Position numbers and translations under genes: made by a program | Shown here: piece after piece, positions 11,026-33,735 of the stretch | Position numbering within the stretch: the stretch's first letter is position 1 | Layout of the letters: each line of letters opens with the position of its first letter | Notes under the pieces: generated by a model | Database searches by the model: none | Told to the model about the DNA's origin: nothing | Seen by the model: only the letters and a program-made list of their open reading frames with translations | Source of the DNA: Deltaproteobacteria bacterium | GTDB taxonomy: Bacteria > Myxococcota_A > Polyangia > Polyangiales > Houyiibacteriaceae | NCBI GenBank assembly: GCA_034670305.1 | Contig: JAXMNT010000070.1 | Coordinates: 1 to 33,777 of the forward strand | Length of the DNA stretch: 33,777 nt | Direction of reading: 5' to 3'

Positions 11026-11241
11026 ACGCGGCGAAGCCGAGCGAAGCGAGCAAGCCGTGTCACCGGGACGGGGTTTGGGGGCTGTGCCCCCAAGAAGATA
11101 CGCGGCGAAGCCGAGCGAAGCGAGCAAGCCGTGTCACCGGGACGGGGCTTGGGGGCTGTGCCCCCAAGAAGATACGCGGCGAAGCCGAGCGAAGCGAGCA
11201 AGCCGTGTCACCGGGACGGGGTTTGGGGCTGTGCCCCCAAG
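11026..11241 (+). repeat. Three tandem 74-bp REP-like units (repeat family 1)
   Basis: Units start at 11026, 11100 and 11174: ACGCGGCGAAGCCGAGCGAAGCGAGCAAGCCGTGTCACCGGGACGGGGTTTGGGGGCTGTGCCCCCAAGAAGAT. Internal hairpin TTGGGGGC-TGT-GCCCCCAA. Confidence 0.95.
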
Positions 11242-14118: not shown

Positions 14119-14287
14119 CCGAAACCTCCAAGCACCGACTCTGGCCGGTACCCGTTCTACTTCAATGATGATGCCAACGGCGAGTTCGTCGTTCGTCGAA
14201 CAAAACGAGGGCGAAAGCGCGTCTCGGATCGTGAACGGAACCGGAAGGTGTAACTGGCTGGTCACACCCGATCGGGTGAAGCGTGGC

Positions 14288-15110
14288 GTAGGGGCCGCCA
14301 GTCTCGCGAAGCGAGGCCCGAATGGCCCCAAGTGGGAAAGTGCGACAAGTGCTGCGAGCCTGCGCAGCCCGCAGGGCGAGCAACTGGCGAGCTCACCAAG
14401 TGATCACAGAGCGCCGAACCGACACGGTGCAGCCGAGCGAAGCGAGCCAGCCGTGTCACCGGGACGGGGTTTGGGGGCCGTGCCCCCAGGAATACCGACA
14501 CGGTGCAGCCGAGCGAAGCGAGCCAGCCGTGTCACCGGGACGGGGTTTGGGGGCCGTGCCCCCAGGAATACCGACACGGTGCAGCCGAGCGAAGCGAGCC
14601 AGCCGTGTCACCGGGACGGGGTTTGGGGGCCGTGCCCCCAAGCAAATAGGAGCGCCTGGACGCGCGCAGCCGCCAACCACCCCCCAGGTGCTTCTTCACT
14701 CCATCAAGTGCAGAGGCGGCGAGCACGTGCAGGCAGCGACGGGCGCGAGACCGACACGGTGCAGCCGAGCGAAGCGAGCCAGCCGTGTCACCGGGACGGG
14801 GTTTGGGGGCCGTGCCCCCAAGAAAGAAGGGCCGCCAGTCTCGCGAAGCGAGCCAGGCCACCCAGCGCCAACGAGTCAGGCATCTCCACACGTGCACCTG
14901 CGCAGGCCGCAGGCCGAGCAACTGGTGCACTCCCCAATCGATCCCCGAGAGCGCCGATAGGAGCGCCTGGACGCGCGCAGCCGCCAACCACCCCAGGTGC
15001 TTCTTCACTCCATCAAGTGCAGAGGCGGCGAGCACGTGCAGGCAGCGACGGGCGCGAATTAGGGCCGCCAGTCTCGCGAAGCGAGCCAGGCCCGTAGTGC
15101 AATTAAAGAG
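14288..15110 (+). repeat. Array A of the ~235-bp structured repeat (family 2) with four nested family-1 units
   Basis: The GGGCCGCCAGTCTCGCGAAGCGAG module starts at 14292, 14829 and 15062 (intact period 233). It is homologous in reverse orientation to arrays at 20793-21345 and 26103-26948. Confidence 0.92.
14418..14822 (+). repeat. 76-bp family-1 units: three tandem (14418, 14494, 14570) and one separate (about 14750)
   Basis: ACCGACACGGTGCAGCCGAGCGAAGCGAGCCAGCCGTGTCACCGGGACGGGGTTTGGGGGCCGTGCCCCCAGGAAT, with stems GACACGG/CCGTGTC and TGGGGGC/GCCCCCA. Confidence 0.95.
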
Positions 15111-15741
15111 GGTCGCCGCTGAACATGGAGCGGCTGAAGGCGTAGTCGGCGGCGCGCATCTGGGCGTGGCAGTCATTGCAGCCAATGGGGGTGCCATCGA
15201 GCAACCGGCCGTAGCCGCCGGGGTCGGCGGCGTTGCCTTCACCGCGCCAAACGATCGCCGGGCTGCCGGAGTCGGTGAGGCGAAGATCCACGTACTCCCA
15301 GCCGACCGCGCCGCCAGCGTTGAAGTCGCCGCCGCGTTTGACCATGGCGTGCAGCTCCCACTCCGCGGGCCGTTCAACGGTCTTGAGCAGGATGGTGCCG
15401 ACCGGGAGGGGCTGGCCCCAGGGCGTGGGCTCCGAGTTCACGTAGAGATGGGACGGGCCGCCGCGCGCGTGTCCATGTTCGAGCCCGATGTCGGGCAACT
15501 CCCATCGCCGCCAGGTGCGGAACGACTCGAAGTCGGACTGCATCGCGATGAAGGGCACGGCCGTTGCGACCGGGCCATCGGCCGCCGACTCGGCACACGC
15601 GGAGAGGGTGCCGAGCACTGTGAGCAGCACTGCGGTTCTCGAGGACAGCACTGCGGTTCCCGAGGACAGCACTGCGGTTCCGGAAGACAGCACTGCGGTT
15701 CCGGAAGACAGCACCGCACCGCGCCGGCGCGCGGCCTTCAC
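15103..15741 (-). CDS. Cytochrome P460/c'-beta family monohaem lipoprotein
   Basis: GTG start overlaps the upstream stop (GTGA). Lipobox LSAC. Family motifs FRTW, LYVN, PVGTILLK, AMVKR, GWEY, and C-terminal CNDCH...DYAF. Confidence 0.75.
   Translation of the reverse strand: MKAARRRGAVLSSGTAVLSSGTAVLSSGTAVLSSRTAVLLTVLGTLSACAESAADGPVATAVPFIAMQSDFESFRTWRRWELPDIGLEHGHARGGPSHLYVNSEPTPWGQPLPVGTILLKTVERPAEWELHAMVKRGGDFNAGGAVGWEYVDLRLTDSGSPAIVWRGEGNAADPGGYGRLLDGTPIGCNDCHAQMRAADYAFSRSMFSGDPL
15625..15717. repeat. 21-bp coding VNTR (four full copies plus a partial) in the signal peptide of the P460-like gene
   Basis: CAGCAC(T/C)GC starts at 15625, 15646, 15667, 15688 and 15709; encodes AVLSS(G/R)T repeats. 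Confidence 0.95.
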
Positions 15742-17195
15742 GGGAAGCCGCGGTCGGGGAACGCTTCGCGGCAAGCTGCGGCGCGGGTCTCGTCGATCGT
15801 CGCTGCCGTCAACGTCGGCGGGTCCATGAAGGGCGGCGCGTCGAAGTCGAACATGTCGAGCAGCGGCCACGCGTTCGCGTCGCGCGCGGTCAATGCGGGC
15901 AGGAGCCAGCGGGTCTGCACGAGCCGGAGTACCGAAGTCAGATCGGTGACCCGGTCTGAGACGTAGCCGGCCTTCGCGTATGGAGAGACGACGACCAGCG
16001 GAACCCGGAAGCCCAACTGATCGAACCCGCCCGCTGCATCGGACGGCGTGAGCTCGGGTGCGGTGGCGTCGGGGGGACAGGCGGCGGGGGGCACGACGTG
16101 GTCGTAGAACCCGCCGTGTTCGTCGTAGGTGAGCACGAAGGCGCTGCGCTCCCAGATCGGGCTGTCCATCAGTGCGCTCACGACTTGGTGTACGAACGCC
16201 TGCCCGAACTGCGGGTTCGCCGGTGGGTGTTCGTCGGACTGCTCCACGCCCTGGAAGAACTGCGGCTCGAGGTAGACGATCGGTGGGAGGTCGCCGGCGG
16301 CCAAGTCGGTGAAGAACTGATCGATCGGCTTGATGCGAGAGAGTCGCCGTCCGGCGTACCGCGGGTAGAGCCCGAGCGGGGTCGGCACATCGCTCTGGTA
16401 CATGCGCCAGTTGATCCCGCGCGCTTCGAGCTGCTGGAAGATCACGTACTCCGCGTCCGCCGCGAAGCCGCTCTCTTCGATCGTCGTATTGCGGATGCGT
16501 CCGAACGAGGTGCCGCTCGTGTAGAAGTAGCGGTTCGGCCAGGTCGGTCCGAGCATGCTGCAGTGGTGGTGATCGCTCATCGCGAACGTTTGGTAGAGCT
16601 CCCAGTAGTAGGGAATGTCCGCGTCGGTGAGGATGCCGAGGGCGCGCGCACCGTCCGGCGCGTTGGTGGTCACGAAGCCGTTCATCAATCCGCCCGCGTA
16701 CTGCTCGTGGCTGCGCGTCCAGTTGTGGGTCACGTCTTCGATGCAGAGCACGTCGGTGTGAAAGGGCTCGACCGGGGTGCCGTCGGTGTCCGGGTTCGAT
16801 GCCCCCTCCGGAATGCCCTCGACTCCTGGCATCATGCCGAAGTAGTGGTCGAAGCTCCGGTTCTCTTGCAGCAACAAGATGATGTGATCGAACGGCATCT
16901 CGTCGCCGATCGGGAACGACTCGCCGACCGTCTCCCACGGCATCGCGCCGGCTTCGAACGCGCACCCGGCGCGGCCCTCGTCCGCTTCGGTGTCGGTGAC
17001 GCGGCTCGGGATCTCTGGAAGCGGATCGGGGCCGGTGTCCATGCGCGCTGGCGCGTCCCGGCCCGCGTCCATCGGCGCGTCGTCCCCCGCGTCGGCCGCG
17101 GCGTCGGGCAGGTCGTCGTCGCCACCGCATCCCGTCTGAAGGGGGACGGCGCCACACAGGAGCAACGCAAGGACACGGCTGGCCACGGGTTCCAC
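15738..17195 (-). CDS. Phospholipase C/acid phosphatase (phosphoesterase family, PlcH/AcpA-like) lipoprotein
   Basis: HIILLLQENRSFDHYFG, GPTWPNR, SDEHP, TYDEHGGFYDHV and GFRVPLVVVSPY motifs. GTG start 6 nt after TATGCT. Confidence 0.92.
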   Translation of the reverse strand: MEPVASRVLALLLCGAVPLQTGCGGDDDLPDAAADAGDDAPMDAGRDAPARMDTGPDPLPEIPSRVTDTEADEGRAGCAFEAGAMPWETVGESFPIGDEMPFDHIILLLQENRSFDHYFGMMPGVEGIPEGASNPDTDGTPVEPFHTDVLCIEDVTHNWTRSHEQYAGGLMNGFVTTNAPDGARALGILTDADIPYYWELYQTFAMSDHHHCSMLGPTWPNRYFYTSGTSFGRIRNTTIEESGFAADAEYVIFQQLEARGINWRMYQSDVPTPLGLYPRYAGRRLSRIKPIDQFFTDLAAGDLPPIVYLEPQFFQGVEQSDEHPPANPQFGQAFVHQVVSALMDSPIWERSAFVLTYDEHGGFYDHVVPPAACPPDATAPELTPSDAAGGFDQLGFRVPLVVVSPYAKAGYVSDRVTDLTSVLRLVQTRWLLPALTARDANAWPLLDMFDFDAPPFMDPPTLTAATIDETRAAACREAFPDRGFP

Positions 17196-17243
17196 CGCGC
17201 GAGCATACCGCCGTTCCGTCCGAAGGTCGTCCGAGCGCCCGCG

Positions 17244-18440
17244 ATGCGGGGTGTCTGGAGAACGATCGGTCTCGTGGTGTGCGTGGCGTGGCTCGGCGCC
17301 TGCTCGGAACCGCCCGCGCAGCTGGTCACGGCCGACCCGAGCGACGACCCCATCGCGGGGCTCGATGCGCCGATGCTCCAGCGGTTCGCGGCGGGGGACG
17401 CGGACTTCGCGCACGTCTTTCGGCCGAGCGAGGGGCTCGGCCCGCGCTTCATTCGCCGCACCTGCGAAGGCTGTCACGCGGACGACGGCCGCGGTCCCGG
17501 TGTGGTGGAGCGGGTGGTCGCGCCGACTCCAACCTCGGCCGAGTCGCTCGAGGCAGGCGCGGTCTTTCGCCCTTCCGCCGTCGCACCGCTCTCGGATCTT
17601 CGCTTGCCCACTGGCGTGCGGCGTCTTCGACGGTTGCCGCCGGCGGTGTTCGGGCGCGGGTATCTGGACGCGGTGCTCGACTCGGAGCTCGCGCGCGTCG
17701 AGCGTCATCAAGCGCGCACGGGGGTGGTGTCCGGGCGCGTGGTGCACGCGGCGCGGTCGTCGCGCATCCCAGCGCGCGAAGGGTACGGGCATGCGTACGG
17801 ACGGTTTGGGCTGAAGGCGGAACGGTCCGACCTGGAAGACTTCGTGGCGGGCGCCTACCTCGACGACATGGGATTGAGTTCCCCCCACCGGCCGGAGGAA
17901 CCGGACCAACCCAGCGAGGACGCCCGCCCGGGCATCGACGTCGACCGCGAGACGGTGGAGCGGGTGGCGGACTACGTTCGGCTTCTGGCGATCCCGTCGC
18001 GCACCGCCGAAGTGGGCTCGGAGGTGTTCGCCGAGGTCGGGTGCGCAGACTGCCACGTGCCGAGCCTGCGAACCGACCCCGCGTATCCGATCCCGCAGCT
18101 CGCTGGCATCGATGCACCGATCTTCTCCGACCTCTTGGTCCACGACATGGGCGAGGCGCTTTCGAGTGCGCCTGCGCCGGAACCGCCACCGCCGTTGGAT
18201 GGGTTGCACGACGTCGGCACCGCGTTGCGAGGCGCCACCGAGGTGCAGCCGGTGGAGTGGCGCACTTCACCGCTGATCGGGATACGACACCTCAGCGCGC
18301 TCCTCCACGACGGCCGCGCCCGCAATGTCACCGAGGCGATCGAAGCGCACGCCGGTGAAGCCGCCCCGTCGCGCGCTCGGTTCGAACGACTCGTGCCGGC
18401 ACGACGCGCGCGCCTGGTGCGCTACGTGGAGTCCCTGTGA
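17244..18440 (+). CDS. Di-haem oxidoreductase family (DHOR) lipoprotein
   Basis: Lipobox LGAC. GLGPRF...CEGCH, FGRGYLDAV, GRFGLKA, GCADCH, FSDLLVHDMG, WRTSPLIG and LLHDGRA motifs. Confidence 0.9.
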   Translation: MRGVWRTIGLVVCVAWLGACSEPPAQLVTADPSDDPIAGLDAPMLQRFAAGDADFAHVFRPSEGLGPRFIRRTCEGCHADDGRGPGVVERVVAPTPTSAESLEAGAVFRPSAVAPLSDLRLPTGVRRLRRLPPAVFGRGYLDAVLDSELARVERHQARTGVVSGRVVHAARSSRIPAREGYGHAYGRFGLKAERSDLEDFVAGAYLDDMGLSSPHRPEEPDQPSEDARPGIDVDRETVERVADYVRLLAIPSRTAEVGSEVFAEVGCADCHVPSLRTDPAYPIPQLAGIDAPIFSDLLVHDMGEALSSAPAPEPPPPLDGLHDVGTALRGATEVQPVEWRTSPLIGIRHLSALLHDGRARNVTEAIEAHAGEAAPSRARFERLVPARRARLVRYVESL

Positions 18441-19420
18441 AGACCTGGGCATGGCTGCTCGTGGGGCTGGCGGCGTGTACGCCACCGCGCGACCGAGCGA
18501 TCGAAGACGTGAAGCGGTACGTCGGGCAAGAACTCGAGGCGCTGCACGACGCGACGGTGCGTTTGCGTCAGGCGGCACCCGAAGCAAGCGACGGATGGTC
18601 GCTGAGCACGCACCGAGAGGCGGTCCTGGAGATGCGGGCGGCTTGGTCGGATGCGCGCGATGCGTACGAGCGGATCGAAGGTGCCATCGGCATGTTGTTC
18701 CCCCACTACGACGTATCGGTCGACGAACGCTACGAGGCGTTCATCGCCGTGCGGCCCGACCGCAACCTCTTCGACGACGACGGGGTGACCGGCATGCACG
18801 CGGTCGAGCGCATCCTCTGGGCGGGCGAACATTCGGACGCGACGGTGCGCTTCGAGCGGTCGCTGCCCTACTACGAGCCCGCGTCGTTTCCGAGCACCGC
18901 GCGCGAGGCGTCCGAGTTCCGGGAGCTCCTGCTCGCGCGGCTGGAGCGCGAGTGCCTCGAGATGCGGGACACCTTCCGCTCGCTGGCGCTCGATCCGGCG
19001 GCTGCGTTTCGGGGGTTGCTCGGATCGATCGAAGAGCAGCAGGAGAAGGTCGCGCTCGGCGGAACCGGTGAAGGCGAGTCCAGATACGCCAATCGCACGC
19101 TCGCCGATATGCGCGCCAACCTCGAAGGCGGCGTGCACGTCTTCGCGGCGATCGCGCCGTGGTTGCTCGATGAAGGCGGCGCCGCGGAAGACGTGCGCAT
19201 CCGCGCGGGCTTCGAGCGGCTGCAGGCGCTGTACGACGGGGTCGAAGGAGACGCCCTGCCTGAGGTGCCGGCTGGGTGGCCGGAGGAGGGCGGCGAGCGC
19301 GCGTTCGGTCGACTGCACGAAGACGTGCGACGAGAGTCCGATCCGGAAGGGGGCGGGTTGATGCGCGACCTCATGCGCGCGGCGGAGCGGGTGGACGCGG
19401 CGGTGCTGCCGAGGATCTAG
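18437..19420 (+). CDS. Imelysin-like (peptidase M75 / EfeM-EfeO family) lipoprotein
   Basis: GTGA overlap with DHOR; lipobox LAAC; AYERIE, TGMHAVERILW (HxxE) and GEGESRYA motifs. Confidence 0.88.
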   Translation: MKTWAWLLVGLAACTPPRDRAIEDVKRYVGQELEALHDATVRLRQAAPEASDGWSLSTHREAVLEMRAAWSDARDAYERIEGAIGMLFPHYDVSVDERYEAFIAVRPDRNLFDDDGVTGMHAVERILWAGEHSDATVRFERSLPYYEPASFPSTAREASEFRELLLARLERECLEMRDTFRSLALDPAAAFRGLLGSIEEQQEKVALGGTGEGESRYANRTLADMRANLEGGVHVFAAIAPWLLDEGGAAEDVRIRAGFERLQALYDGVEGDALPEVPAGWPEEGGERAFGRLHEDVRRESDPEGGGLMRDLMRAAERVDAAVLPRI

Positions 19421-19437
19421 GTGGACAGCGGGGGTAT

Positions 19438-19678
19438 CCCTTGCCCTTGCCCTTGCCCCTGCCCTTGCCCCTGCTCCTGCCCTTGCCCCGCTTTTGAGAA
19501 CCGACGCCGACGCCGAAGCCGAATCCGAAGCCGACGCCGAAGCCGAAGCCGACGCCGAAGCCGACGCCGACGCCGAAGCCGACGCCGACTCCGACGCCGA
19601 AACCGAAACCGAATCCGAATCCGAAGGAGAGGATGCGCGGTTCCCGTGCCCGTGCCCGTGCCCGTGCCCGTGCCCGTG
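19438..19678. repeat. Composite hexamer microsatellite (CCCTTG)n-(CCGAAG/CCGACG)n-(CCCGTG)n
   Basis: Three adjacent hexamer blocks between convergent genes ending at 19420 (+) and 19811 (-). Confidence 0.9.
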
Positions 19679-19810
19679 TTGGTCAGTCGGTGCCGATGCA
19701 GAAGCGGACACCGGTCAACCGAGACCGCCCAAGCGATGCGGCTTGGGCGGGCTCGGATCTTCGTCTTGCCCGGGCAAGGGCAAGGGACGTTGCCTACGTC
19801 GCTTCTTGGC

Positions 19811-20737
19811 TCAGCGGGGCAGCGGCATGCCAGGGGCCCAGACGAGGGGGTTTCGGACGTTGGTGTTGCTGGCGAGGGTGCGGACGAGGAGGACGCCAGG
19901 AGCGCGCGGTTGGTAGACGACGGGCTGGGTGGGTCGCACCGGCACCGGTTCCAGGTGGACGGGTTCGACCGCCACGGGGGTCGGGACCACGGCGACCTGC
20001 TGAGCGGCGCCGAAGAGGTCGCCTTGGGCGAGCACGCGGCCGGCGGTGGGGATGCTGTGGGCGGCGCGCCAGGCGATGAGTCGGTCCACGGCTTGGTTGA
20101 GGCTGGTTTCGGTGGCCCGCCGGAGGGTGACTTCGATCTGGCGGAAGCGGGCTTGCAGGCGCGCCTTCTCCAAATCTTCCATCACGGGCTCGTCGGGCAG
20201 ATCGGGTTCGATGAAGAAGTAGGGCTCCTGGATCATCGCGATCTCGTCCTGGGTGAAGCCGCTCGAGAGCATCCACGCGAGGAGCGGTCCGTCGTGCACG
20301 TCGGCGAGGCGGAGGAAGTTGTTCTGGGCAGCGACCTGCTGGACCCGCGAGAGCAGTCCGTCGATCGACATCAGGTTGGCGGCTGCACAGATGTGTCCCT
20401 CGTCGTCGATGAAGACGTTGAGCATGCCGGGCTGCTCGTGGTTGCGGGGGAACTCACCGGCGGCGGCGTAGGCGCTGAAGCGTGCGAGGTTCGTGACCCG
20501 CCGCGCAGCGAGCTGATCCCGGAGCACCTCTCGCACGGAGCGGGGCGGGGAGACCTGCTGGGGCACGGGGGCGCGGCGGGCGACGATCGCGCGGCCGCCA
20601 CCGGGATGCCAGACCCCGACTTGGGCGGAGGCAGACACGGGCAGCAGCGACGCGGCGACAGCAAGGATCGCACCGAGCGCAAGCGCGTTGGGGCGGGCGG
20701 GTGTGCGGTTCGGGACCGGAGGGGTGTGACTGGGCAT
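19811..20737 (-). CDS. Hypothetical secreted protein
   Basis: Signal peptide ending ASA-Q, globular core (FPRNHE...FIDDEGHICAAANLM...EIAMIQEPY) and a Pro/Val-rich tail. Confidence 0.7.
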   Translation of the reverse strand: MPSHTPPVPNRTPARPNALALGAILAVAASLLPVSASAQVGVWHPGGGRAIVARRAPVPQQVSPPRSVREVLRDQLAARRVTNLARFSAYAAAGEFPRNHEQPGMLNVFIDDEGHICAAANLMSIDGLLSRVQQVAAQNNFLRLADVHDGPLLAWMLSSGFTQDEIAMIQEPYFFIEPDLPDEPVMEDLEKARLQARFRQIEVTLRRATETSLNQAVDRLIAWRAAHSIPTAGRVLAQGDLFGAAQQVAVVPTPVAVEPVHLEPVPVRPTQPVVYQPRAPGVLLVRTLASNTNVRNPLVWAPGMPLPR

Positions 20738-20792
20738 GGAAAGTCAGACGCGCCACATCGGCGCTCGGTCTGCCGCTTTACGTTTCTTTTGC

Positions 20793-21345
20793 TTCTTTAT
20801 TGTCACTACGGGCCTGGCCCGCTTCGCGGGACTGGCGGCCCTAATTCGGCGTCCAGAGCACCTTCACGTGCTCGCCGCCCGAGCATTTGGACACACTGAA
20901 GAAGCGATTGGAACAACTGGCGGCTGCGCGCGGTGAAGGCACTCCCGCCGCCTCTATGACGCACTTGGGGAGTGCACCAGTTGCTCGCCCTACGGGCTGC
21001 GCAGGTGCACGGGTGGAGCCGCCTGACTCGTTGGCGTTGTGAGATGGCCTGGCCCGCTTCGCGGGACTGGCGGCCCTAATTCGGCGTCCAGTGTTTCTGA
21101 GGGGGAAGGGTTCCCCCTCCGGCCTTCGGCCTCCTCCCCACCTGGGCACCTTCACGTGCTCGCCGCCCGAGCATTTGGACACACTGAAGAAGCGATTGGA
21201 ACAACTGGCGGCTGCGCGCGGTGAAGGCACTCCCGCCGCCTCTATGACGCACTTGGGGAGTGCACCAGTTGCTCGCCCTACGGGCTGCGCAGGTGCACGG
21301 GTGGAGCCGCCTGACTCGTTGGCGTTGTGAGATGGCCTGGCCCGC
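20793..21345 (-). repeat. Array B of the ~235-bp structured repeat (family 2): two full units plus a fragment
   Basis: GGCCTGGCCCGC starts at 20811, 21046 and 21334 (periods 235 and 288). The second unit carries a ~53-bp insert at about 21092-21145; the units are otherwise essentially identical. Confidence 0.95.
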
Positions 21346-21380
21346 GCCTCGCAGCGGCCACCTCTTGTATGCTCCGCGCC

Positions 21381-23780
21381 ATGTCGGCGGAATCCGAGAT
21401 CACCGTGCGGACGGTGCTGGAGCGCCTGGCGGAGGATCCCGTCTGCGCGCTCCACGGCATGCCCGGCGTCGGCAAGAGCCGGTTGCTGCACGCGGCGGCG
21501 CGCGGCTTGTCCGAGTGGTCCGAAGTCCAAGTACTGACGGTCGAGGCCGGAACCGAGCCGCTCCCCGAGTTCATTGGGCCGGTCCTGGTGCTCGATTCGG
21601 AATCCACGGTCGACCTCGACGGCGTCCGCGCCTGGGTGGTGCGCGCCCCGGACCGCCGCGCCCTCGTCGCGAGCTGGCTGCCGAGCTCCGCGGAGTCGAT
21701 CTGCGTGCCGCCCATGGCGCTTCCCGATCGCGGGACCCCGGTGCGCGACTCGGCTGCGGGCGCGTTCTGGGTCCGGTGCGCCAAGAAGGTCGCGTCCGAC
21801 TACGTGCTCGACGACGAGCGCGAGGACGTGGTGCGGCTCATCCTCGAACACATCGACGGGGTGCCGCTGGCCATCGAAGAACTCTGCGGCTTGCTCTCGC
21901 TGCTCGACGAGGAAGCGATCCTCGACCGGCTCGAGAAGGCGCCGGCCAAACTCTGGCGCGCCGCCGGCCAGGGGGAACGGCCGCTCCTGTCGCGCCTAGA
22001 GCGGTACTGGGCCCACCTGCCTTCGGACTGGCGCGACGCGCTCGTGCAGACCCGCGCCTTCGCCAGCTTCTTCGACGCCGCCGCGGCGGAGGAGATCGTG
22101 GAACTCGAGGGCAGCGTGCTCGACGTGCTCCGCCGCACCATCGACGCGTCTTTGCTGGCGACCCGAGGGGCCGTCGGCATGCGGCTCGTGCGGACGCGAG
22201 CGCTCCTCGGGTGCGTGTCGCCACCGGAGGGCGACGTGCTGGCGCGGGCCCGCGAGCGGCACGCCCACCATGTGTGCGAGGAGGTGCTGGCCGGCCGCAC
22301 CCAGCGCGTGCTGGGCGAACTGATGCGCGCGGCGACCACCTTCGCCTCGCCGCGATTGGGGGCCTCGAGAGAAGACGACATCGAACGGGCGACGCTCTTG
22401 CTCTCGGCGATCGACATCGCGTCGCTCGATCGGCACCAGGCGACGGCCTACTTGGATCTGCTCTCCCTCGTCTTCCCGGACGAGCCGCCCATCGCCCTCG
22501 AACGCAAACACGTGAGCGCGCTCCGGCGCCTTGCGCGGTACGACGACGCGCGCGATGTGCTCGAGAGCGCGTCGGCCCGCGTCGAACACGCGGTCGACGC
22601 ACCGGTCGCGCTCAAGGCGGAGCTCCTGGCCGAACTCGGCGCGCTGCACCTCGACGCGGGCGAACTCGACGACGCGCTCGACCGGTTGGACGACGCGCTC
22701 GACACGCTCGGCGTCGGCACCCTCGAACTCGATGCGCCCACCCACCGGGCCACCGCGCTCGTACGGCGCGGCGAAGTGCTCCAGGAACTCGGGCGCAGCG
22801 AAGCGGCGCAGGCGGATCTCGAGCAGAGCTACCTCCTGTTCCGCGAGGAGGGCAACCACGCCCGCGAGATCCACGCGCTCTTGCGACTGGCGCGGGTGCG
22901 CACGAGCCTCGGACGTTTCGACGCGGCGCGGCAGGCCCTCGAGGATGGGCGCGCGCTCGCGGAGAAGGCCGGGGTCCCGCTCTGGCTCGGCTACGCGCAG
23001 ATGGGCGTCGCGCTCGTCGCACACACCGAAGGTCAACTCGGACCCGCGTGCGAGCTGTACAAGCGGGCCGAGCGCGCGCTTCAAGAACACGGCAGCGCGG
23101 CCGACGTCGGCACCTGCGCGACCTACCTCGCCATGGCACTTCATTCGATGCGGCAGTTGGACGACGCCAGCCTGCACGCGCGGCGCGGGCGGCAGCTGCT
23201 CGAACAGACCGGTTCTGGACGGCTCGGCGTGATCGCGCAGGGTGCGTGCGTCGGCATCGAAGCGGATCTCGGCGCGCTCGACGTGGCGCGCGCCCGGCTC
23301 GCGGCTGCGCTCGAAGCGATCGAAGGCCGCTCCGATCCGATCGTGCGCTTCCTCTGGTTGCGCGGCGCGCACCTGCCCGAGCGCTCCTTGCCGAAAGGCG
23401 ACGACCCGCCCTCGGTCGAGCTGCGTCTGGCGCGACAGACGCTCCAACAACAGCGCAAGGAGGGCGACGGCATCCGGGTTCAGCTCGATGGGCGCGCATT
23501 CGTGCTCCCATCCGGTGAAGTGTCTCTCCGCCGGCGCAAAGCGCTGCGGCGCATCTTGGCGGCGCTCGCCCAATCGTTGGCCGCGGCCCCCGGCACCGCG
23601 ATGTCGGTCGACGATCTCTTCGACGCCGGCTGGCCCGGCGAACGGCTCGGACCCGAACACGCCAACAACCGGGTCTACAACGCCGTGAGCGAACTGCGCT
23701 CCATGGGCCTGAAACAGATCCTCATCCGCCAGGACGACGGCTACCTCCTGGACCCGGCCGAGAACGTCACAGCCGTCTGA
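21381..23780 (+). CDS. STAND-like ATPase with TPR repeats and a C-terminal winged-helix; putative transcriptional regulator
   Basis: Walker A GMPGVGKS, Walker B VLVLDS, DGVPLAIE (GxP), TPR-like helices, and C-terminal LFDAGWPGE...NRVYNAVSELRSMGL...GYLL. ATG is 7 nt after TATGCT. Confidence 0.85.
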   Translation: MSAESEITVRTVLERLAEDPVCALHGMPGVGKSRLLHAAARGLSEWSEVQVLTVEAGTEPLPEFIGPVLVLDSESTVDLDGVRAWVVRAPDRRALVASWLPSSAESICVPPMALPDRGTPVRDSAAGAFWVRCAKKVASDYVLDDEREDVVRLILEHIDGVPLAIEELCGLLSLLDEEAILDRLEKAPAKLWRAAGQGERPLLSRLERYWAHLPSDWRDALVQTRAFASFFDAAAAEEIVELEGSVLDVLRRTIDASLLATRGAVGMRLVRTRALLGCVSPPEGDVLARARERHAHHVCEEVLAGRTQRVLGELMRAATTFASPRLGASREDDIERATLLLSAIDIASLDRHQATAYLDLLSLVFPDEPPIALERKHVSALRRLARYDDARDVLESASARVEHAVDAPVALKAELLAELGALHLDAGELDDALDRLDDALDTLGVGTLELDAPTHRATALVRRGEVLQELGRSEAAQADLEQSYLLFREEGNHAREIHALLRLARVRTSLGRFDAARQALEDGRALAEKAGVPLWLGYAQMGVALVAHTEGQLGPACELYKRAERALQEHGSAADVGTCATYLAMALHSMRQLDDASLHARRGRQLLEQTGSGRLGVIAQGACVGIEADLGALDVARARLAAALEAIEGRSDPIVRFLWLRGAHLPERSLPKGDDPPSVELRLARQTLQQQRKEGDGIRVQLDGRAFVLPSGEVSLRRRKALRRILAALAQSLAAAPGTAMSVDDLFDAGWPGERLGPEHANNRVYNAVSELRSMGLKQILIRQDDGYLLDPAENVTAV

Positions 23781-23991
23781 CGCGAACCGACGCGGTGGAG
23801 AAGGAGCCGTGTGATCGATCACGGCTACATGTGCCTACATGTGCGTGACCTGTTAGCACGACGTTCGATGGTTGCGGTCCGGAGCGCTCACGCGCTGTCT
23901 TGAGCCTCGCTCTTAGATCCGGAGAACTCGTCGAAGCCACCCGGCTTCCATGACCCCGCATCGTTTCAACTCTCTCCCCCGGAGTTTGGAC

Positions 23992-25977
23992 ATGCGCCGT
24001 TTTCTGTTTCTCTCCTGCGTTCTGAGCCTCAGTGCATCCATTGGATGTGCCACCGACGAGGTCGGTGAAGCCTCGGACCTGATCGTCGCGGGCTCGCCCG
24101 ACGAGGTCGCCGTTCTGGCGCTCGTCAACGATCGCGACGTGACCCAATCGATGTTCGACATCGACGTCGGACTCGACCGGCGCGCCGCCGCCAACATCGT
24201 CTCGACCCGCAACGGCCCCGACTGGATGCAGGCCACCGCCGACGATGTCGACTTTCAGTCGATCGTCGAGCTCGACGCGGTCTCCTACGTCGGACCGCGC
24301 GCCCTGGCGGACCTGCTCGCCTACGCGCGCGCCAACGGATACCTCCCGGTCGATGCGCCCGTCGACGTGCGCGAAGCCACCATGCTCGCGTTCGTGAACG
24401 ACGGCGCGACCAGCTTCGAGCTGCTCGACGACGACGTCGGCCTCGACCGCCGCGCCGCCGGCAACATCATCGCGCACCGCGCCGGAGACGACGGTCTCTT
24501 GGAGACGGCCGACGACCGCGCCTTCGCGACGGTCAACGAACTCGACGCGATCTCCTACGTCGGCGAACGCGCCCTCGAACTGATCTACGAGTACGCGCTC
24601 GCGCACGGGTTCGGCCCGTCGCAGGGCGACGTCGTCGCCGAGGTGATCTTCTCGCCGCAGCCCTTCGCGACGAGCCACGCGACGCGCGTGCTCGAGCTCA
24701 TCGACGGCGCGCAGAGCTCGCTCGACATCGCGATGTACAGCTTCTCGATCGGCTCGATCTACGACGCGATCGAAGCCGCCGTCGCCCGCGGGGTGAAGGT
24801 GCGCATGATCTTTGAGACCGCGAACGCCGACCGCCGCGCCTCGGATCCGAGTTCGACCCGCTCCGCGCGGCTCGAGCGCATGGGCGTGAACGTTCGCTAC
24901 GTGAACAAGATCATGCACCACAAGTTCATTCTCGTGGACGGCCCGCGCGACGACGATGCGCGCGCCATGACCGCGAGCATTGCGAGTGGCAGCGCCAACT
25001 GGTCGAACGGCGGCGCCACCCGCTACGACGAGAACACGCTCTTCCTGCGCGGGTTGCCCGAGTTCGCGCGTTCGTTCCAGCGCGAGTTCGATCACCTCTG
25101 GAGCCACTCGCGCGACTTCGTGTTCGACGAGAGCCTTCCTTACGAGCTGGCCACCAACGTCATCGACGAAGTCGCCATGCCGGACGACGCCGCGGCGCTC
25201 TTCACCTCCGACAACTTCACCGTGACGACCACGACCTTCCGGGTGACCGGCGCCAACACTGTGTCGGACGCGCTCGTCGCCGCGATCGATGCCGCGACCG
25301 ATTCGATTCATGTCGCGAGCGGCCACCTCCGGTCGCGGCCGGTCTCCGAAGCGATCATGCGCGCGGCGCGTGAACGGCCCGAGATGGACATCCGCGTCTA
25401 CCTCGATGGGCAGGAGTGGATCAGCGAGTGGGTTGCCAACGCGCAGGCGAATGACCTCGAAGACTGCGTCGAAGTGGCCTCGACCGAGTCGCAGATCCGG
25501 CGCTGCTACGACCGCGGTTTCAAGTTCGGCTACGACGTGCAGGAGGCCGGCGCCGACGTGCGGTACAAGTTCTACTCATACCGCTGGCACTACACCTACG
25601 CGGTGCAGATGCACCACAAGTACCTCGTCATCGACGGCGACGAGCTCTGGACCGGCAGCTACAACTTGTCCGACAACGCGGAACACAACACCATGGAGAA
25701 CATGCTGATGTTCCGGGGCCCGCGTTTCGCCGAACTCGTCGCTGCGTACGAAGCGAACTTCGAGTCGATGTGGGAGACCCACCGCGACGACGGGACCTAC
25801 GAGTCGATCGAAGACGACATCCGCACCGACCCGCTCGTGCCGCTGGTTTTCACGCCGGTCGCCATGACCTGGTCTCAGGTCGACGACATTCGTCGACTCA
25901 CACGAACGGAGTGCCCGGCGGTCGACAGCGCCGACTACCGGAGCCGTCCGGAGAACTACCGCGTCTGCGAACGTTGA
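23992..25977 (+). CDS. Phospholipase D superfamily (two HKD motifs, Nuc-like) lipoprotein with duplicated N-terminal helix-hairpin-helix-like modules
   Basis: Lipobox SIGC. Two repeats of DVGLDRRAA.NI...ELDA(V/I)SYVG.RAL. Catalytic motifs HHKFILVD...SGSANWS and HHKYLVID...TGSYNLS. GGAG RBS. Confidence 0.88.
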   Translation: MRRFLFLSCVLSLSASIGCATDEVGEASDLIVAGSPDEVAVLALVNDRDVTQSMFDIDVGLDRRAAANIVSTRNGPDWMQATADDVDFQSIVELDAVSYVGPRALADLLAYARANGYLPVDAPVDVREATMLAFVNDGATSFELLDDDVGLDRRAAGNIIAHRAGDDGLLETADDRAFATVNELDAISYVGERALELIYEYALAHGFGPSQGDVVAEVIFSPQPFATSHATRVLELIDGAQSSLDIAMYSFSIGSIYDAIEAAVARGVKVRMIFETANADRRASDPSSTRSARLERMGVNVRYVNKIMHHKFILVDGPRDDDARAMTASIASGSANWSNGGATRYDENTLFLRGLPEFARSFQREFDHLWSHSRDFVFDESLPYELATNVIDEVAMPDDAAALFTSDNFTVTTTTFRVTGANTVSDALVAAIDAATDSIHVASGHLRSRPVSEAIMRAARERPEMDIRVYLDGQEWISEWVANAQANDLEDCVEVASTESQIRRCYDRGFKFGYDVQEAGADVRYKFYSYRWHYTYAVQMHHKYLVIDGDELWTGSYNLSDNAEHNTMENMLMFRGPRFAELVAAYEANFESMWETHRDDGTYESIEDDIRTDPLVPLVFTPVAMTWSQVDDIRRLTRTECPAVDSADYRSRPENYRVCER

Positions 25978-26102
25978 AGAACGTGTAGACGCCGCACGAT
26001 CCTCTTTTCTTCCGTCAAGAGGACCCGTGTGTGCCTGGGGGATGGGGGGTGAGATGGGCCGTCACGAAAACGCTCGGGGGAGTGCTTTTCGTGGCGGCTG
26101 TC

Positions 26103-26948
26103 TCTTTCTATCCGCAATACGGGCCTGGCTCGCTTCGCTCGACTGGCGGCCCTAATTCGCGCCCGTCGCTGCCTGCACGTGCTCGCCGCCCATGACTCAG
26201 GTGCATTGAAGAAGCACTGGGATCCGTTGGGCGGCTGCGCGCGTCCAGGCGCTCCTTGAGGCGCTCTATGACTCACTTGGGGAGTGCACCAGTTGCTCGG
26301 CCTTCGGCCTGCGCAGGTGCACGTCAGCGAGTTGCCTGACTCGCGGGCGCTGTGAGTGGCCTGGCTCGCTTCGCTCGACTGGCGGGCCTAATTCGGCGTC
26401 CAGAGCACCTTCACGTGCTCGCCGCCCATTCACTTCCACTCACTGAAGATGCATTTGGGGCACTTGGCGGCTGCGCGCGGTGAAGGCACTCCCGCCGCCT
26501 CTATGACTCACTTGGGGAGTGCACCAGTTGCTCGGCCTTCGGCCTGCGCAGGTGCACGTCAGCGAGTTGCCTGACTCGCTGGCGTCATCTCGTGGCCTGG
26601 CTCGCTTCGCTCGACTGGCGGCCCTAATTCGGCGTCCGTATCCAATCCTTCACAGGCGGTGCGGGCTGGCACACCGCTTGTTTCTGAGGGGAAGGGTTCC
26701 CCCTCCGGCCTTCGGCCTCCTCCCCGCCTGGGCACCTTCACGTGCTCGCCGCCCATTCACTTCCACTCACTGAAGAAGTGATTGGAACAACTGCGGCTGC
26801 GCGCGGTGAAGGCACTCCCGCCGCCTCTATGACCCACTTGGGGAGTGCACCAGTTGCTCGGCCTTCGGCCTGCGCAGGTGCACGGGTGGAGCCGCCTGAC
26901 TCGCGGGCGCTGTGAGTGGCCTGGCTCGCTTCGCGGGACTGGCGGCTC
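26103..26948 (-). repeat. Array C of the ~235-bp structured repeat (family 2): three full units plus a fragment
   Basis: GGCCTGGCTCGCTTCGC starts at 26122, 26358, 26594 and 26918 (periods 236, 236, 324). The third unit has an ~88-bp insert. Confidence 0.95.
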
Positions 26949-28046
26949 TCAGAGCTGGGTGACCCATTGGACCATGAGGGGTCCGACGATCCAGCCGTGG
27001 TAGGCGGCCCAGCAGGCGAGGAGGGCGAGCCAGAGCATCAGGGTCAGGGACCGACGTCGCAGCCGGTACACCACGAACAACATCACGAGTAGGAGTACGG
27101 CGGTGACTCCGCGGCCGATGGTTTGATGGGCATTCGCCCGGCGCAGTTCGCGGGCGACGGCGCGCTGCATCGCGGGCGATGGGGGGTGGTCCGAAACCAG
27201 TCCTGGGGCGGATTCGAACGCGACTTCGACCAACACCCCGCGGTGGTCGGACAAGGGCGTGCGTCGGCCACTGCGAAGCGCAACGGTCTCGGTCAGGACC
27301 TGCTCGATCGCCGTCCCAAAGAGCCGGGTCCCTGGGCCATCCCGCAGGAACACGGCATCGACGTGCGAGCGGCCGATCATCGAAAATACTTCGAGCGGTT
27401 CGAAGGGAAGTTCGCCCGGACGGGTGTTGAAGTCTCCGACCAAGATCAGAGGCACCGTCGAACCGCTCAGCCAGGCGGCGAGCTCCCGGGTCTGTCCAAG
27501 CCGGTGCCCTTCGTTCTCGCCCTCTCCGTAGGCGGCATGCACGTGGGTGTCGACGACCCGAACCTGTCCCGCTGGTGTCTGGAGTGTGACCTCGAGCGCG
27601 CCTTTGGTCGCGTACCAGTCGGGCGGCCACGGTGTGTAGGGCAGACTGCCCACGCGGAACGGTTCGAATCGGTGAGAGACGATCGGGTACCGGCTCGCCA
27701 GCACCAGCCCCGAGCTCCCGCGTTGCAACGGCCGAGTCGACCCCAGGTGGACCTCGTACCGAAGCCCGCGCTCGGCGAATGCGGCCGCGAAGACCTCCGC
27801 GTCCGAGTCCCGCCACACTTCCTGCAGCGCGACCACATCCGCATCCACCGCGGACACTGCGTCCGCACACTGCGCGAGCAACTCGTCGTGGTCTTCGCGC
27901 ATCGGCACGCTCCAGGTGTTGAAGCTCAGGACCCGCAAGCGGAACGTCGACGCGGATGGCGGCGTTTCGATCGCGACGTCTTCGAGCACCCGATCGCTGT
28001 CCTCGATCGAACACCCCAGCATCGAAGACGCGAGCACGCAAAGCAT
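26949..28046 (-). CDS. Endonuclease/exonuclease/phosphatase (EEP) family protein, neutral-sphingomyelinase-like, with two C-terminal TM helices
   Basis: LRVLSFNTW, VALQEVW, SSGLVLASRYPI, DWYATKG, THVHAAY, LVGDFN and LSDHRGV motifs; C-terminal hydrophobic hairpin. Start uncertain (28046 or GTG at 28061). Confidence 0.82.
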   Translation of the reverse strand: MLCVLASSMLGCSIEDSDRVLEDVAIETPPSASTFRLRVLSFNTWSVPMREDHDELLAQCADAVSAVDADVVALQEVWRDSDAEVFAAAFAERGLRYEVHLGSTRPLQRGSSGLVLASRYPIVSHRFEPFRVGSLPYTPWPPDWYATKGALEVTLQTPAGQVRVVDTHVHAAYGEGENEGHRLGQTRELAAWLSGSTVPLILVGDFNTRPGELPFEPLEVFSMIGRSHVDAVFLRDGPGTRLFGTAIEQVLTETVALRSGRRTPLSDHRGVLVEVAFESAPGLVSDHPPSPAMQRAVARELRRANAHQTIGRGVTAVLLLVMLFVVYRLRRRSLTLMLWLALLACWAAYHGWIVGPLMVQWVTQL

Positions 28047-28239
28047 CGTCGACAAGCGCACCCGCGCGGCCGAAAAGCGGGTGCCCTTGCGATCCTCCGA
28101 CCACCGCTGCGTCTGTATAGCCGCCCGTCCGATGCACAGGAACGCGGCGCTGCCTTCGGGAATCGCAGCACGGTGTGCGGTCGCCATGATCGAGTCTCGT
28201 CCATGCTTGACCCCGCGTCCAAGCGGCGCACCCTGCACC

Positions 28240-28917
28240 ATGCTGAAATCACCGGCCGTGCGCGGCGGCGCCGCATCTTTTGACGGACACACCCCCGACG
28301 AAACCACCGCAGGCGACGCCGACTACCTCGAAGCGGCGGGACACGCGCACTACGAACTCGCCGCCGACGCGGTGGTGTTGACCGTGCGGGTCGAAGCCGA
28401 CGAGCTCGTCAGCGCGCCGAACGCGCTCGAGAAGGTGACCGAGCTCTCGGGGCTGCGCGATCGGTTGCTTCAAGCCGGCGTCACAGCAGTCGACTTGGTC
28501 GCCTTCGACGGCCGCGCCAAGAGCGGCTTGCTCGGCAGCAGTTCCATCGGTCGTTACACCCTGCGCGTGACCTGCCCGCTCGAAGCCACGTCCGCCGCGT
28601 TGATGGTCGTCGCGAAAGATGGCGACGCGACGTTGGCTGGATCGGTGTGGTCGTTCGAGGACGACACCTCGCAACGGCGTGAAGCCGGCGCCCTCGCCGC
28701 CCAAGACGCGCGCGCCCAGCTCGATGCGATCGCCGCCGCGCTCGGCATCGAACTCGGCGCCCCCCACCGCGTGCTCTCGAGGGTCTCCGCAACCGGCGGC
28801 GACACCGCACCGGTCGGGCGCATGAGCAAGAGCGCGACCCCCGACGACCTCTTCGTCCGCCTCGCCGCCCTCCGCACCGTCACCGTCAAAGTCACCCTCC
28901 GCCACCACCCCGCCTGA
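28240..28917 (+). CDS. SIMPL (DUF541) domain-like protein
   Basis: [19 protein letters not shown] and [21 protein letters not shown] motifs, ending in the strand VTVKVTL. Start uncertain. Confidence 0.65.
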
Positions 28918-28954: not shown

Positions 28955-29293
<339 letters not shown>

Positions 29294-29320
29294 GAACAAC
29301 GTCGGCGTGAACCCGCTCCC

Positions 29321-33556: not shown

Positions 33557-33652
33557 GGAAGCGGAAGCGGAAGCGGGAGCGGAAGCGGAAGCAGAAGCCG
33601 AAGCCGAAGCCGAAGCCGAAGCCGAAGCCGAAGCCGAAGCCGAAGCCGAAGC
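33557..33652. repeat. Hexamer microsatellite (GGAAGC)n-(CGAAGC)n
   Basis: Direct reading of the sequence downstream of the ribE stop. Confidence 0.9.
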
Positions 33653-33653
33653 A

Positions 33654-33735
33654 CTAGCAGGTTGCTGAAGAACGCCCGCAGGGCGTTCTCGCAGCCTGCC
33701 CCTTGCCCCTGCCCTTGCCTTTGCCCTTGCCCGCG
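33654..33735 (+). repeat. CTAG-anchored hairpin plus hexamer tail (repeat family 3, copy 3)
   Basis: CTAGCAGGTTGCTGAA-GAACGCCC-GCA-GGGCGTTC-TCGCAGCCTGC, then CCCTTG-type units ending TTGCCCGCG as in copy 1. Confidence 0.65.

Follow-up and report, generated by a model that had tools for sequence, protein, structure and literature searches.

Organisation of the repeat arrays

The window analysed here, a stretch of 33,777 nucleotides, is the whole of contig C70 (33.8 kb; JAXMNT010000070.1) of the draft genome of a Deltaproteobacteria bacterium of the Houyiibacteriaceae (GCA_034670305.1), labelled G000 in this study. The assembly comprises 7,933,502 bases in 105 contigs with a G+C content of 68.1% and is 96.2% complete. 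Three arrays of a structured repeat of about 235 bp lie between the genes of the window: array A at 14289-15111 on the plus strand, and arrays B (20792-21345) and C (26103-26951) on the minus strand. They were delimited by direct reading and by repeat finders (families D3, D5, D7, D9, D15, D18 and D19), and Tandem Repeats Finder (TRF) gave a period of 236 over 26122-26637 in array C. The initial annotation of this DNA had described three arrays with about seven units. The present count agrees, with two units in A, two in B and three in C, seven in total, and with nine full copies of a hairpin designated H1 (three, two and four; regular-expression search) plus one half copy.

The arrays follow one plan, a chain of H1 - body - H1 - body - H1, the parts of which are listed in Table 1. 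Regular unit periods are 233-236 bp. Periods of 288, 324-326 and 537 bp also occur, because nested repeats of two other families, R76 and R53, interrupt the units.

Genes were called on the basis of third-codon-position G+C content (GC3), and Pfam matches on four of the six open reading frames (ORFs) flanking the arrays agree with this call. Array A is flanked by two minus-strand genes and is antisense to both, array B has divergent gene starts on its two sides and array C convergent gene ends, the three contexts that had been reported for them. The TGA at 26949-26951 serves both as the 5' edge of the first H1 of array C and as the stop codon of an Exo_endo_phos gene (26949-28307, minus strand).

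Table 1. Parts of the three repeat arrays in the window, in order of position.
Feature	Position	Strand	Description
Array A first H1 hairpin	14289..14319	+	TAG + GGGGCC..CTCGC-GAA-GCGAG..GCCC; right foot degenerate
Unit A1 body	14320..14827	+	Two R76 interruptions: 14418-14645 (3 tandem copies) and 14750-14826 (1 copy); model positions 3-131 and 133-268
Array A middle H1 hairpin	14829..14859	+	
Unit A2 body	14860..15059	+	M1 linker; arm 2 GTGCACC..GGCC-GCA-GGCC..GGTGCAC; long arm 3, CCTGGAC/GTGCAGG variant
Array A terminal H1 and tail	15060..15111	+	TAG..GGCC; tail CGTAGTGCAATTAAAGAGG
Array B terminal H1 and tail	20792..20843	-	CCCGC-GAA-GCGGG variant; tail CGTAGTGACAATAAAGAAG
Unit B2 body	20844..21045	-	Arm 3 CCTTCAC/GTGAAGG; arm 2 GCCC-GTA-GGGC
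Array B middle H1 hairpin	21046..21078	-	
Unit B1 body	21079..21333	-	99-100% identical to B2; nested R53 at about 21093-21145
Array B half H1	21334..21345	-	Right arm only, GCGGGCCAGGCC; 5' end of array
Array C terminal H1 and tail	26103..26154	-	CGAGC-GAA-GCGAG, tandem G-A variant; tail CGTATTGCGGATAGAAAGA
Unit C3 body	26155..26357	-	Arm 3 CCTGGAC/GTGCAGG variant
Array C H1 hairpin	26358..26390	-	
Unit C2 body	26391..26593	-	Arm 3 CCTTCAC/GTGAAGG; M1 is a hairpin of its own, CAGCGAGT..ACTCGCTG
Array C H1 hairpin	26594..26626	-	
Unit C1 body	26627..26917	-	Nested R53 at about 26678-26729; further insert of ~40 nt at 26640-26677
Array C first H1	26918..26951	-	5' edge TGA is a gene stop

The H1 hairpin

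On the array strand H1 reads TAG GGCC GCCAGT CNNGC GAA GCNNG CCA GGCC C GTAG, an imperfect palindrome of about 33 nt within a module of 51 nt. It is built from a GGCC foot, an asymmetric internal loop and a 5-bp stem closed by C-GAA-G, and is followed by C-GTAG and an A-rich tail. When the 120 loci of H1 in G000 (see below) were compared position by position, conservation was found to start at -8 (T 68, A 81, G 88 of 120) and to end near +19, the 3' edge being C-C-G-T-A-G-Y-G followed by the A-rich stretch. The four bases of the GTAG, located 3' of the foot at +3 to +6, were found at 113, 107, 88 and 89 of the 120 loci, respectively. On the 5' side the sequence is NTAG, and only 24 of the 120 loci have a G at -9.

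Three stem variants account for most of the 170 copies: CTCGC/GCGAG (100), CCCGC/GCGGG (28) and CGAGC/GCGAG (24), the last having tandem G-A/A-G in place of two Watson-Crick pairs (CGAGC-GAA-GCGAG). The loop was GAA in 162 of the 170, a circular count, because CGAAGCG, with no more than two mismatches allowed, was part of the search pattern. Within H1 is the heptamer GCGAAGC in exact form, the sequence of the d(GCGAAGC) mini-hairpin. This hairpin melts at 76.5°C, and CCGAAGG forms a mini-hairpin as well, both being described as exceptionally stable (PMC13037366). The six short hairpins with C-GNA-G triloops quoted in the initial annotation were all recovered.

The unit body and its pairing

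Two H1 copies in direct orientation bracket a body of ~200 bp, which with one H1 makes up the unit of ~235 bp. The body consists of a variable linker (M1), arm 2 and arm 3, the latter an interrupted stem of ~25 bp, and units are mosaics of exchangeable modules. Arm 2 has the form GTGCACC ... S-S-C-C GNA G-G-S-S ... GGTGCAC with a C-GNA-G loop. Copies of this arm were collected by their flanks alone, leaving the loop free, and 67 of the 69 had a GNA loop on the array strand (GCA 44, GTA 12, GAA 10, GGA 1), which bears out the reported confinement of GNA loops to one strand. Their stems were GGCC/GGCC in 40 and GCCC/GGGC in 25. The case for the array strand has three parts: the G and A of the triloop are conserved while the middle base varies, a G-T(U) pair occurs in 19 of the 35 units aligned below, and d(GCGAAGC) and d(CCGAAGG) are exceptionally stable (PMC13037366).

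Pairing was assessed on 35 units with one H1 each, four from the window, nine from other loci of G000 and 22 from a close relative (see below), two of 37 candidates having been dropped. In RNAalifold folds with both H1 copies present, H1 paired to H1, a repeat artefact, and folding was repeated with a single H1. The consensus then set the H1 stem in a shifted register, so that a structure of 42 pairs specified by hand was used for counting. Of all cells counted, 93.5% were paired against 88.7 ± 0.4% in shuffled alignments and 25.7-37.0% with slid partners. Cells changed on both sides numbered 66 (27 ± 3.3 in shuffles), and the covariation score was 0.127 (0.052 in shuffles); for none of these three measures was the observed value reached in 500 shuffles. 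Pairs with such changes include 136/245 (CG 19, GC 16), 149/232 (CG 23, AU 8, GC 3), 151/230 (GC 15, CG 8, UA 8), 87/96 (GC 29, CG 5) and 18/28 (UA 17, CG 6), and a separate count on 44 units of G000 returned the same covarying pairs.

The changes come in blocks: CATCGAC/GTCGATG, CCTTCAC/GTGAAGG and CCTGCAC/GTGCAGG in arm 3, GGCC/GCCC in arm 2 and T-A/C-G in H1. The arm-3 variants that had been reported are present as described, except that the pairing of GCCTGCAC with GTCCAGGC contains one central mismatch (G-G or C-C). Maintenance of complementarity is well supported by these changes, although they represent few events.

Nested repeats R76 and R53

R76 is a repeat of 74-76 bp with two hairpins, GAGC-GAA-GCGAG, whose 14-nt core is common with the GAGC variant of H1, and GGGGGCC-GTG-CCCCC. 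In the window it forms perfect tandem triplets and is found within unit A1 (Table 1) and at 11026-11241; about 82 loci were counted in the genome. At several loci it is inserted at model position 131 of the unit, and its orientation is that of the nearest H1 in 17 cases and opposite in one. R53 is an element of ~53 bp, GGAGGCC-GAA-GGCCGG followed by GGGGGAACCCTTCCCCC, which is nested near the 3' end of units. It gave 28 BLAST matches at 26 loci, and those near H1 were co-oriented with it 22:0.

Genome-wide abundance and placement

A BLASTN search of the unit against the whole of G000, which the initial annotation had proposed as a check, revealed a dispersed family, with 742 high-scoring segment pairs (HSPs) on 53 of the 105 contigs, far above chance. 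An iterated nhmmer profile found 172 matches in 122 loci, 46 of which cover at least 240 of the 274 model positions. With a stricter H1 pattern, 189 matches were obtained and 170 were kept, located at 120 loci (76 single, 39 double, 4 triple and 1 quadruple), the sole locus with four H1 being array C. Arrays have one to three units. Identity between dispersed copies reaches 96.6%, as for unit B2 and contig C12:42891-43153. Adjacent H1 copies less than 400 bp apart were all in direct orientation (50 pairs, none inverted). In contigs of three sequencing runs from two studies, the depth of the H1 bin was about 60-135 times that of the flanks. Among contigs of four DNA runs over 25500-27600 none bridges array C, and these data yielded only depth ratios and repeat-internal joints.

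H1 is extragenic, lying between the GC3-called genes, and sits close to stop codons. At 47 of the 120 loci the tail of H1 contains the first base of a convergent gene's stop codon, between +8 and +22 with peaks at +13 and +17. At 13 of 120 an upstream co-oriented gene ends 3-7 nt before the H1 core, its stop being the TAG of H1 itself in ten; the Exo_endo_phos gene beside array C, with its TGA, is one of the 13. The genes between nearby H1 loci look ordinary when their translations are read by eye (an amidotransferase-like protein, an HNH nuclease, malate dehydrogenase and others). H1 behaves like a GTAG-tagged repetitive extragenic palindrome (REP), because its placement, its subfamilies and its clusters match the account of such REPs in PMC3733652.

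Incomplete copies are common, be they truncated, nested or internally deleted, and several contigs end in the repeat. By a hand tally of the nhmmer list, copies lacking the 5' end outnumber those lacking the 3' end (about 20-24 versus 8-10). Internal deletions join short homologies between hairpins, for example at C13:30885, where model positions 4-90 are joined to 238-272. In 19 units a tail, not M1, follows the first H1, and in six of them this tail showed a locus-specific match to that of the last H1, against ~4% expected by chance; H1 with its tail has therefore been duplicated in place around the body.

Turnover in a close relative

Among other species representatives, the exact 26-nt H1 pattern gave only two single matches, both in Bradyrhizobium (one each in B. 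tunisiense and B. niftali; L021 and L022), which probably represent one orthologous chance site. It was found in no viral contig. A BLAST search of the unit against 40 family- and order-level relatives gave nothing apart from one 24-nt match (E 9e-4). In metagenome contigs the pattern occurred at 79 loci, 77 of which match G000 with a mean HSP identity of 90%; these loci come from a close relative. L-numbered loci compared with G000, such as L034 and L036, are metagenome contigs of this relative.

Both flanks were on the contig for 46 element clusters, and 32 of these were syntenic with G000. Element content differed by more than 30 bp in 26 of the 32 syntenic rows, corresponding to 25 of 31 distinct loci. 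The orthologs of arrays B and C are both shorter in the relative: that of C measures 376 bp, against 860 bp in G000, and that of B has two H1, spaced by 234 bp, in place of two units. The 99-100% identity of B1 and B2 points to a recent tandem duplication.

One empty site was found. At L034 the relative holds a linker, body, H1 and tail (~270 bp) after a TGA stop, and the corresponding site in G000 (C1:92033-92076) is empty. This clean insertion is without a left H1, without a visible duplication and without local homology. At L036 the relative has a solo H1 at a TAG, a position compatible with a 3-bp duplication at this one site, and G000 has there an unrelated element of ~660 bp with terminal inverted repeats (TIRs), flanked by TAG. 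This insert lies at C1:298447-299111 with TAG on both sides and ends in CAGGNTGCTGAAGAACGCCC(T/G)GCGGGCGTTC; the same end abuts H1 at C55, C56, C91 and C1:95689. Relics of H1, in the form of hairpin-less tails (CGTAGYG..A-rich) or half hairpins, were seen in G000 at C20:26167-26202, C9:36184-36252, C60:5993-6067 and C4:198601-198687, sites that carry a full H1 or unit in the relative. They suggest that palindromes get deleted while the tail persists.

The repeat family is dynamic DNA, which is gained, lost and resized fast between close relatives. It is a dispersed intergenic family that grows locally by tandem duplication of whole units and decays by internal deletions. Arrays A-C are probably members of a lineage-specific, non-coding repeat family resembling REPs and bacterial interspersed mosaic elements (BIMEs), which spreads, duplicates and decays at the DNA level.

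Turnover of this kind might also arise free of any dedicated enzyme, through satellite-like slippage, unequal recombination, gene conversion and ectopic template switching, with the arms kept by intrastrand templated repair and not by selection. The variation in unit number at orthologous arrays, the near identity of B1 and B2, the mosaic make-up of the units and the deletions between short homologies (C13:30885) are consistent with this. The in-place duplication of H1 and tail (6 of 19 units) is easier to obtain by template switch than by a transposase, and reiteration of REP clusters with their flanking DNA is on record in PMC3733652. A family at ~120 loci over more than 50 contigs, with copies up to 96.6% identical, nevertheless requires an efficient route to new sites; at least one clean insertion into an empty site without local homology (L034) was seen, and the co-orientation of R76 and R53 with H1 (17:1 and 22:0) suggests a strand-aware process. 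An entirely enzyme-free origin is distinctly unlikely on this evidence.

Strand preference and a possible role as RNA

Selection could also act on H1 or the units at the RNA level, as structures in 3' untranslated regions that protect or end mRNAs or as a multicopy small RNA, with DNA mobility as the means of spread. The location of H1 within about 20 nt of gene stops at 47 + 13 of the 120 loci fits such a role, and PMC3733652 argues that many REPs act as RNA from the same pattern, stop-codon placement together with G-T pairs. One arm-3 pair is G-U (G-T) in 19 of the 35 units, and over the 44 units of G000 G-U cells exceed A-C cells 48 to 12. As RNA, both strands of the unit fold below shuffles (z -2.15 and -3.11).

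The orientation of H1 to its neighbours is mixed, however (same/opposite 64/48 for the upstream gene and 47/70 for the downstream gene), array B is located between two divergent starts, and the neighbours of array A both run antisense to it. Five terminator-like sites were predicted in 14200-27020, against 5.3 in shuffles, and none is inside a unit; no hairpin is followed by a T-tract, in line with the earlier statement that the arrays are not simple terminators. The tail of H1 is A-rich on the GNA strand and no U-tract follows any hairpin, and no sigma-70-like promoter site was found inside any unit of the window. At gathering thresholds the only Rfam match in the window was a tRNA at 517-590, and at E≤1 there was none over 14200-27020, including no group II intron signature. 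The more stable RNA strand is the one without GNA loops in 39 of 45 units, and the frequency of truncated, nested and internally deleted copies likewise argues against selection on a transcript. A function exerted mainly as RNA is considered unlikely.

Proposed propagation and candidate enzymes

Returning to the REP/BIME-like family spreading at the DNA level, a GTAG-tagged hairpin would have captured a structured linker of ~200 bp. Its spread to new loci could rely on folded single-stranded DNA (ssDNA) hairpins recognised by a trans-acting enzyme, on the model of REPs and IS200/IS605 ends, which are used by Y1 HUH transposases. Growth and decay of the arrays might be left to the replication and recombination machinery of the host, slipping between H1 copies, and a role of the hairpin at RNA 3' ends of neighbouring genes would be secondary at most.

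Several results weigh against this reading. Pairs changed on both sides number 8 (7.4 in shuffles; reached in 231 of 500) and further pair types 16 (16.8 in shuffles; reached in 394 of 500). Since these event-counting measures are no higher than in shuffles, the signal consists of few block changes inherited by subfamilies, and the covarying stems of the initial annotation are upheld as compensatory change that keeps stems paired, on the strength of these few events. The same annotation had placed selection on ssDNA rather than RNA, which the present data do not support: by nearest-neighbour energies the GNA strand is the more stable one in 22 of 45 units as DNA and in 6 of 45 as RNA, parameter sets which may miss the special stability of GNA triloops. 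Folding z-scores of single units are modest (-2.15, -3.11 and -1.59). The orientation of H1 is only weakly biased with GC skew (30/38 versus 36/15, odds ratio 0.33, p 0.005 at 10 kb), more weakly still in larger windows (p 0.05 at 25 kb and 0.03 at 50 kb), and in this draft assembly skew and gene strand do not go together. Inverted REP doublets do not occur among the H1 pairs, and the GTAG of H1 lies 3' of the foot, where E. coli REPs have it on the 5' side. Finally, many differences between the relative and G000 are messy replacements and not clean insertions. Among them are half hairpins, hairpin-less tails and internal deletions of arm 3, after which a unit looks like a 'solo' H1 with only a remnant of its body.

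The search for an enzyme adds to these difficulties. The sole PF01797 (Y1 HUH) genes of G000 are 11 paralogues of a ~235-aa protein resembling REP-associated tyrosine transposases (RAYTs), 71-100% identical, and three fragments. The best NCBIfam match of this protein was REP_Tyr_transpos, at 38 bits against a cut-off of 80. Each gene lies in a unit of ~1.5 kb bounded by GTCACCTGYTGCGGGG inverted repeats with inverted flanks of ~400 bp, an organisation that matches the 'TIRtron/TIRYT' class as set out in PMC3733652. The 11 full copies of this insertion sequence-like family are located at C68:17901-19530 (within L014) and at ten other loci (L011-L020, C63). None of the 11 ORFs is flanked by H1 or a unit, in an assembly that is fragmented at these repeats, so that such a gene may have been missed at a contig break. 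A unit fragment lies within 5 kb of only one Y1 gene, at a distance of about 2.3 kb. Y1 homologues are present in five of the 40 relatives, none of the five with the repeat. BLAST of the unit against the Y1 elements gave only matches of 10-14 nt, those of 14 nt being copies of R76 beside three Y1 elements, and the flanks of the Y1 elements are not a dispersed repeat, matching only Y1 loci and three contig-end fragments. No match to TnpB (PF07282) was found in G000, and none to the IS91-type Y2_Tnp (PF04986), an uninformative negative because the control for this profile matched in no genome either. In the relative, none of 116 ORFs flanking H1 matched a transposase family.

Overall, no HUH, RAYT or reverse transcriptase gene was found that is flanked by the repeat or co-distributed with it. 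Of the proposal that an enzyme acts in trans, one half stands: no enzyme is encoded in cis, and therefore any enzyme must act in trans.

A bolder version would make the ~235-nt unit a self-contained ssDNA element with three C-GNA-G-capped arms, the representative of a new non-autonomous HUH-type class 5-10 times the size of a REP, strictly head-to-tail and anchored at its 3' side (H1, GTAG and tail, with the 5' end lost). Mobilisation in trans would fall to the RAYT-like Y1 family bounded by TIRs or to an unrecognised enzyme, and R76 and R53, with GAA-capped hairpins and an orientation in common with the units, would depend on the same machinery. This is quite doubtful.

Three paralogous reverse transcriptases are encoded in G000 (C23:85596-87260, the C10:168437-169069 region and C67:18082-19680), which brings up the copying of units through RNA, in the manner of short interspersed elements. 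A reverse transcriptase would do so in trans from an anchor formed by the 3' hairpin and the A-rich tail, and would leave 5'-truncated copies. The constant 3' end (H1 and A-rich tail to +19), the excess of copies lacking the 5' end (roughly 20-24 versus 8-10 by hand) and the insertion at L034 without a left H1 are what such a process would leave. All three enzymes, however, fit the PADLOC model of retron type XIII (504-517 bits) and none lies near a unit. Reverse transcriptases of this type are self-priming and are not known to mobilise other DNA. Copies with 3' truncations or internal deletions exist too, several 'truncated' copies prove to be deletion products when aligned with the relative, and the Rfam scans of the window gave no group II intron signature. 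Retro-mobility is highly improbable, and propagation of a REP/BIME-like family as DNA is retained as the preferred reading.

REP/BIME-type repeats are well studied in gamma-proteobacteria and little elsewhere. The family described here comes from a high-GC, uncultured marine lineage, possibly myxobacteria-like in gene content, in which a REP-like hairpin appears to have recruited a large structured linker and to have spread with it as a unit. Its layout is purely head-to-tail, with the tag on the other side of the hairpin than in the E. coli model, and it turns over at most syntenic loci between genomes ~90% identical in aligned flanks. It may serve as a natural system for the question of what propagates such repeats without a flanking RAYT, and it makes it possible to ask whether chromosomes exploit the extreme stability of d(GCGNAGC) hairpins. 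In practical terms, the family breaks short-read assemblies and is a possible strain-typing marker for the lineage.

Other repeats in the window

A 21-bp tandem repeat (15625-15714; 4.3 copies with 95% matches by TRF) sits in a stretch of 630 bp without a called gene, between array A and a phosphoesterase gene. Hexamer runs (CCGAAG, CCCTTG, CCCGTG and their complements) were observed at 64-96, 19438-19678, 28955-29294 and 33558-33732 and recur as inverted pairs; one 32-nt hexamer stretch is behind most of 3,723 BLAST HSPs genome-wide. The end of the contig (33655-33777) belongs to another repeat, which has the ends CAGGNTGCTGAAGAACGCCC(T/G)GCGGGCGTTC of the TIR element at the L036 counterpart and lies beside (GGCAAG)n runs.

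Comparison with known systems

The initial annotation did not recognise the repeat as a described family, which holds for its sequence (no Rfam match at E≤1) and not for its kind: the family is new in sequence, and REPs and BIMEs as a kind are already known. It would be an atypical member, larger and strictly head-to-tail, of this familiar kind of selfish or semi-domesticated DNA between genes. H1 shares its basic design with the GTAG REPs described in PMC3733652: the palindrome is GC-rich and imperfect, its loop has 3 nt, and an unpaired, conserved GTAG adjoins the foot. In that account GTAG REPs often supply the TAG stop to flanking ORFs, lie 20 bp or less from both ORFs when between convergent genes, fall into stem subfamilies through complementary changes, and form clusters reiterated in tandem with the adjoining DNA. 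H1 shares the copy number above 100, the extragenic location, the subfamilies, the supply of stop codons and the tandem clusters (PMC3733652). Its pairs are solely head-to-tail, an arrangement given there as absent or under-represented. H1 also differs in that its GTAG, on the strand reading GTAG, lies 3' of the foot, and in its linker, which is a conserved module of ~200 bp with covarying arms that is dispersed to dozens of loci.

Arrays of REPs and linkers are the definition of BIMEs. In E. coli, as reported in PMC3333891, the GTAG of a REP lies 5' to the foot of the palindrome, the enzyme TnpA-REP binds and cleaves REPs as ssDNA, requiring both the GTAG and a mismatch in the stem, and strains differ in how many tandem BIMEs a locus has. 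The present family likewise combines hairpin modules and conserved linkers in a tandem mosaic whose copy number varies between strains (PMC3333891), and by analogy with the hairpins of those elements H1, with its stem irregularity and conserved tetranucleotide, could plausibly be handled as ssDNA by a Y1 HUH enzyme. BIMEs, in the same source, alternate REPs with inverted REPs over linkers of tens of bases, whereas H1 copies are all direct and the linker measures ~200 bp. Unlike in the REPtron of PMC3333891, no RAYT gene flanked by H1 was found in this 96%-complete assembly. With REPINs and their RAYTs, as presented in PMC3116915 and PMC3337134, the family shares short palindromic repeats that are non-autonomous, persist vertically and are thought to depend on a transposase in trans. 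A REPIN consists of two inverted REPs with a single-copy flanked RAYT (PMC3116915, PMC3337134), and neither is present here. As to miniature inverted-repeat transposable elements (MITEs), the unit ends are the same palindrome in direct orientation and no autonomous copy was found.

The ends of IS200/IS605 elements and of palindrome-associated transposable elements (PATEs) carry similar subterminal imperfect palindromes in the same orientation, without TIRs, and these elements tend to insert beside a copy of their own end. The units resemble them in their direct palindromes at both ends, the lack of TIRs and the lack of a target duplication at one clean insertion, and insertion next to an end of the same kind would build head-to-tail arrays. 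Unlike for IS200/IS605, whose orientation is strongly biased to the lagging-strand template, no cognate TnpA or TnpB with these ends was found, and the replication-strand bias is weak.

Other candidates were set aside. The repeats lack the GTTRRRY core pair of an integron attC site and the adjacent reverse transcriptase gene of a retron non-coding RNA, a CRISPR was dropped on anatomy alone, and coding sequence is at odds with indels that do not come in threes and with the nested insertions. No described myxobacterial counterpart was found in the literature.

The loops link the family to the mini-hairpins d(GCGNAGC) and d(CCGAAGG), which are found at ssDNA replication origins and phage N4 promoters as single functional sites (PMC13037366). 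H1 carries GCGAAGC, and arm 2 and R53 carry CCGAAGG or C-GNA-G variants. Unlike at the ssDNA sites of phages and plasmids, the motif here caps the arms of a chromosomal repeat of ~170 copies.

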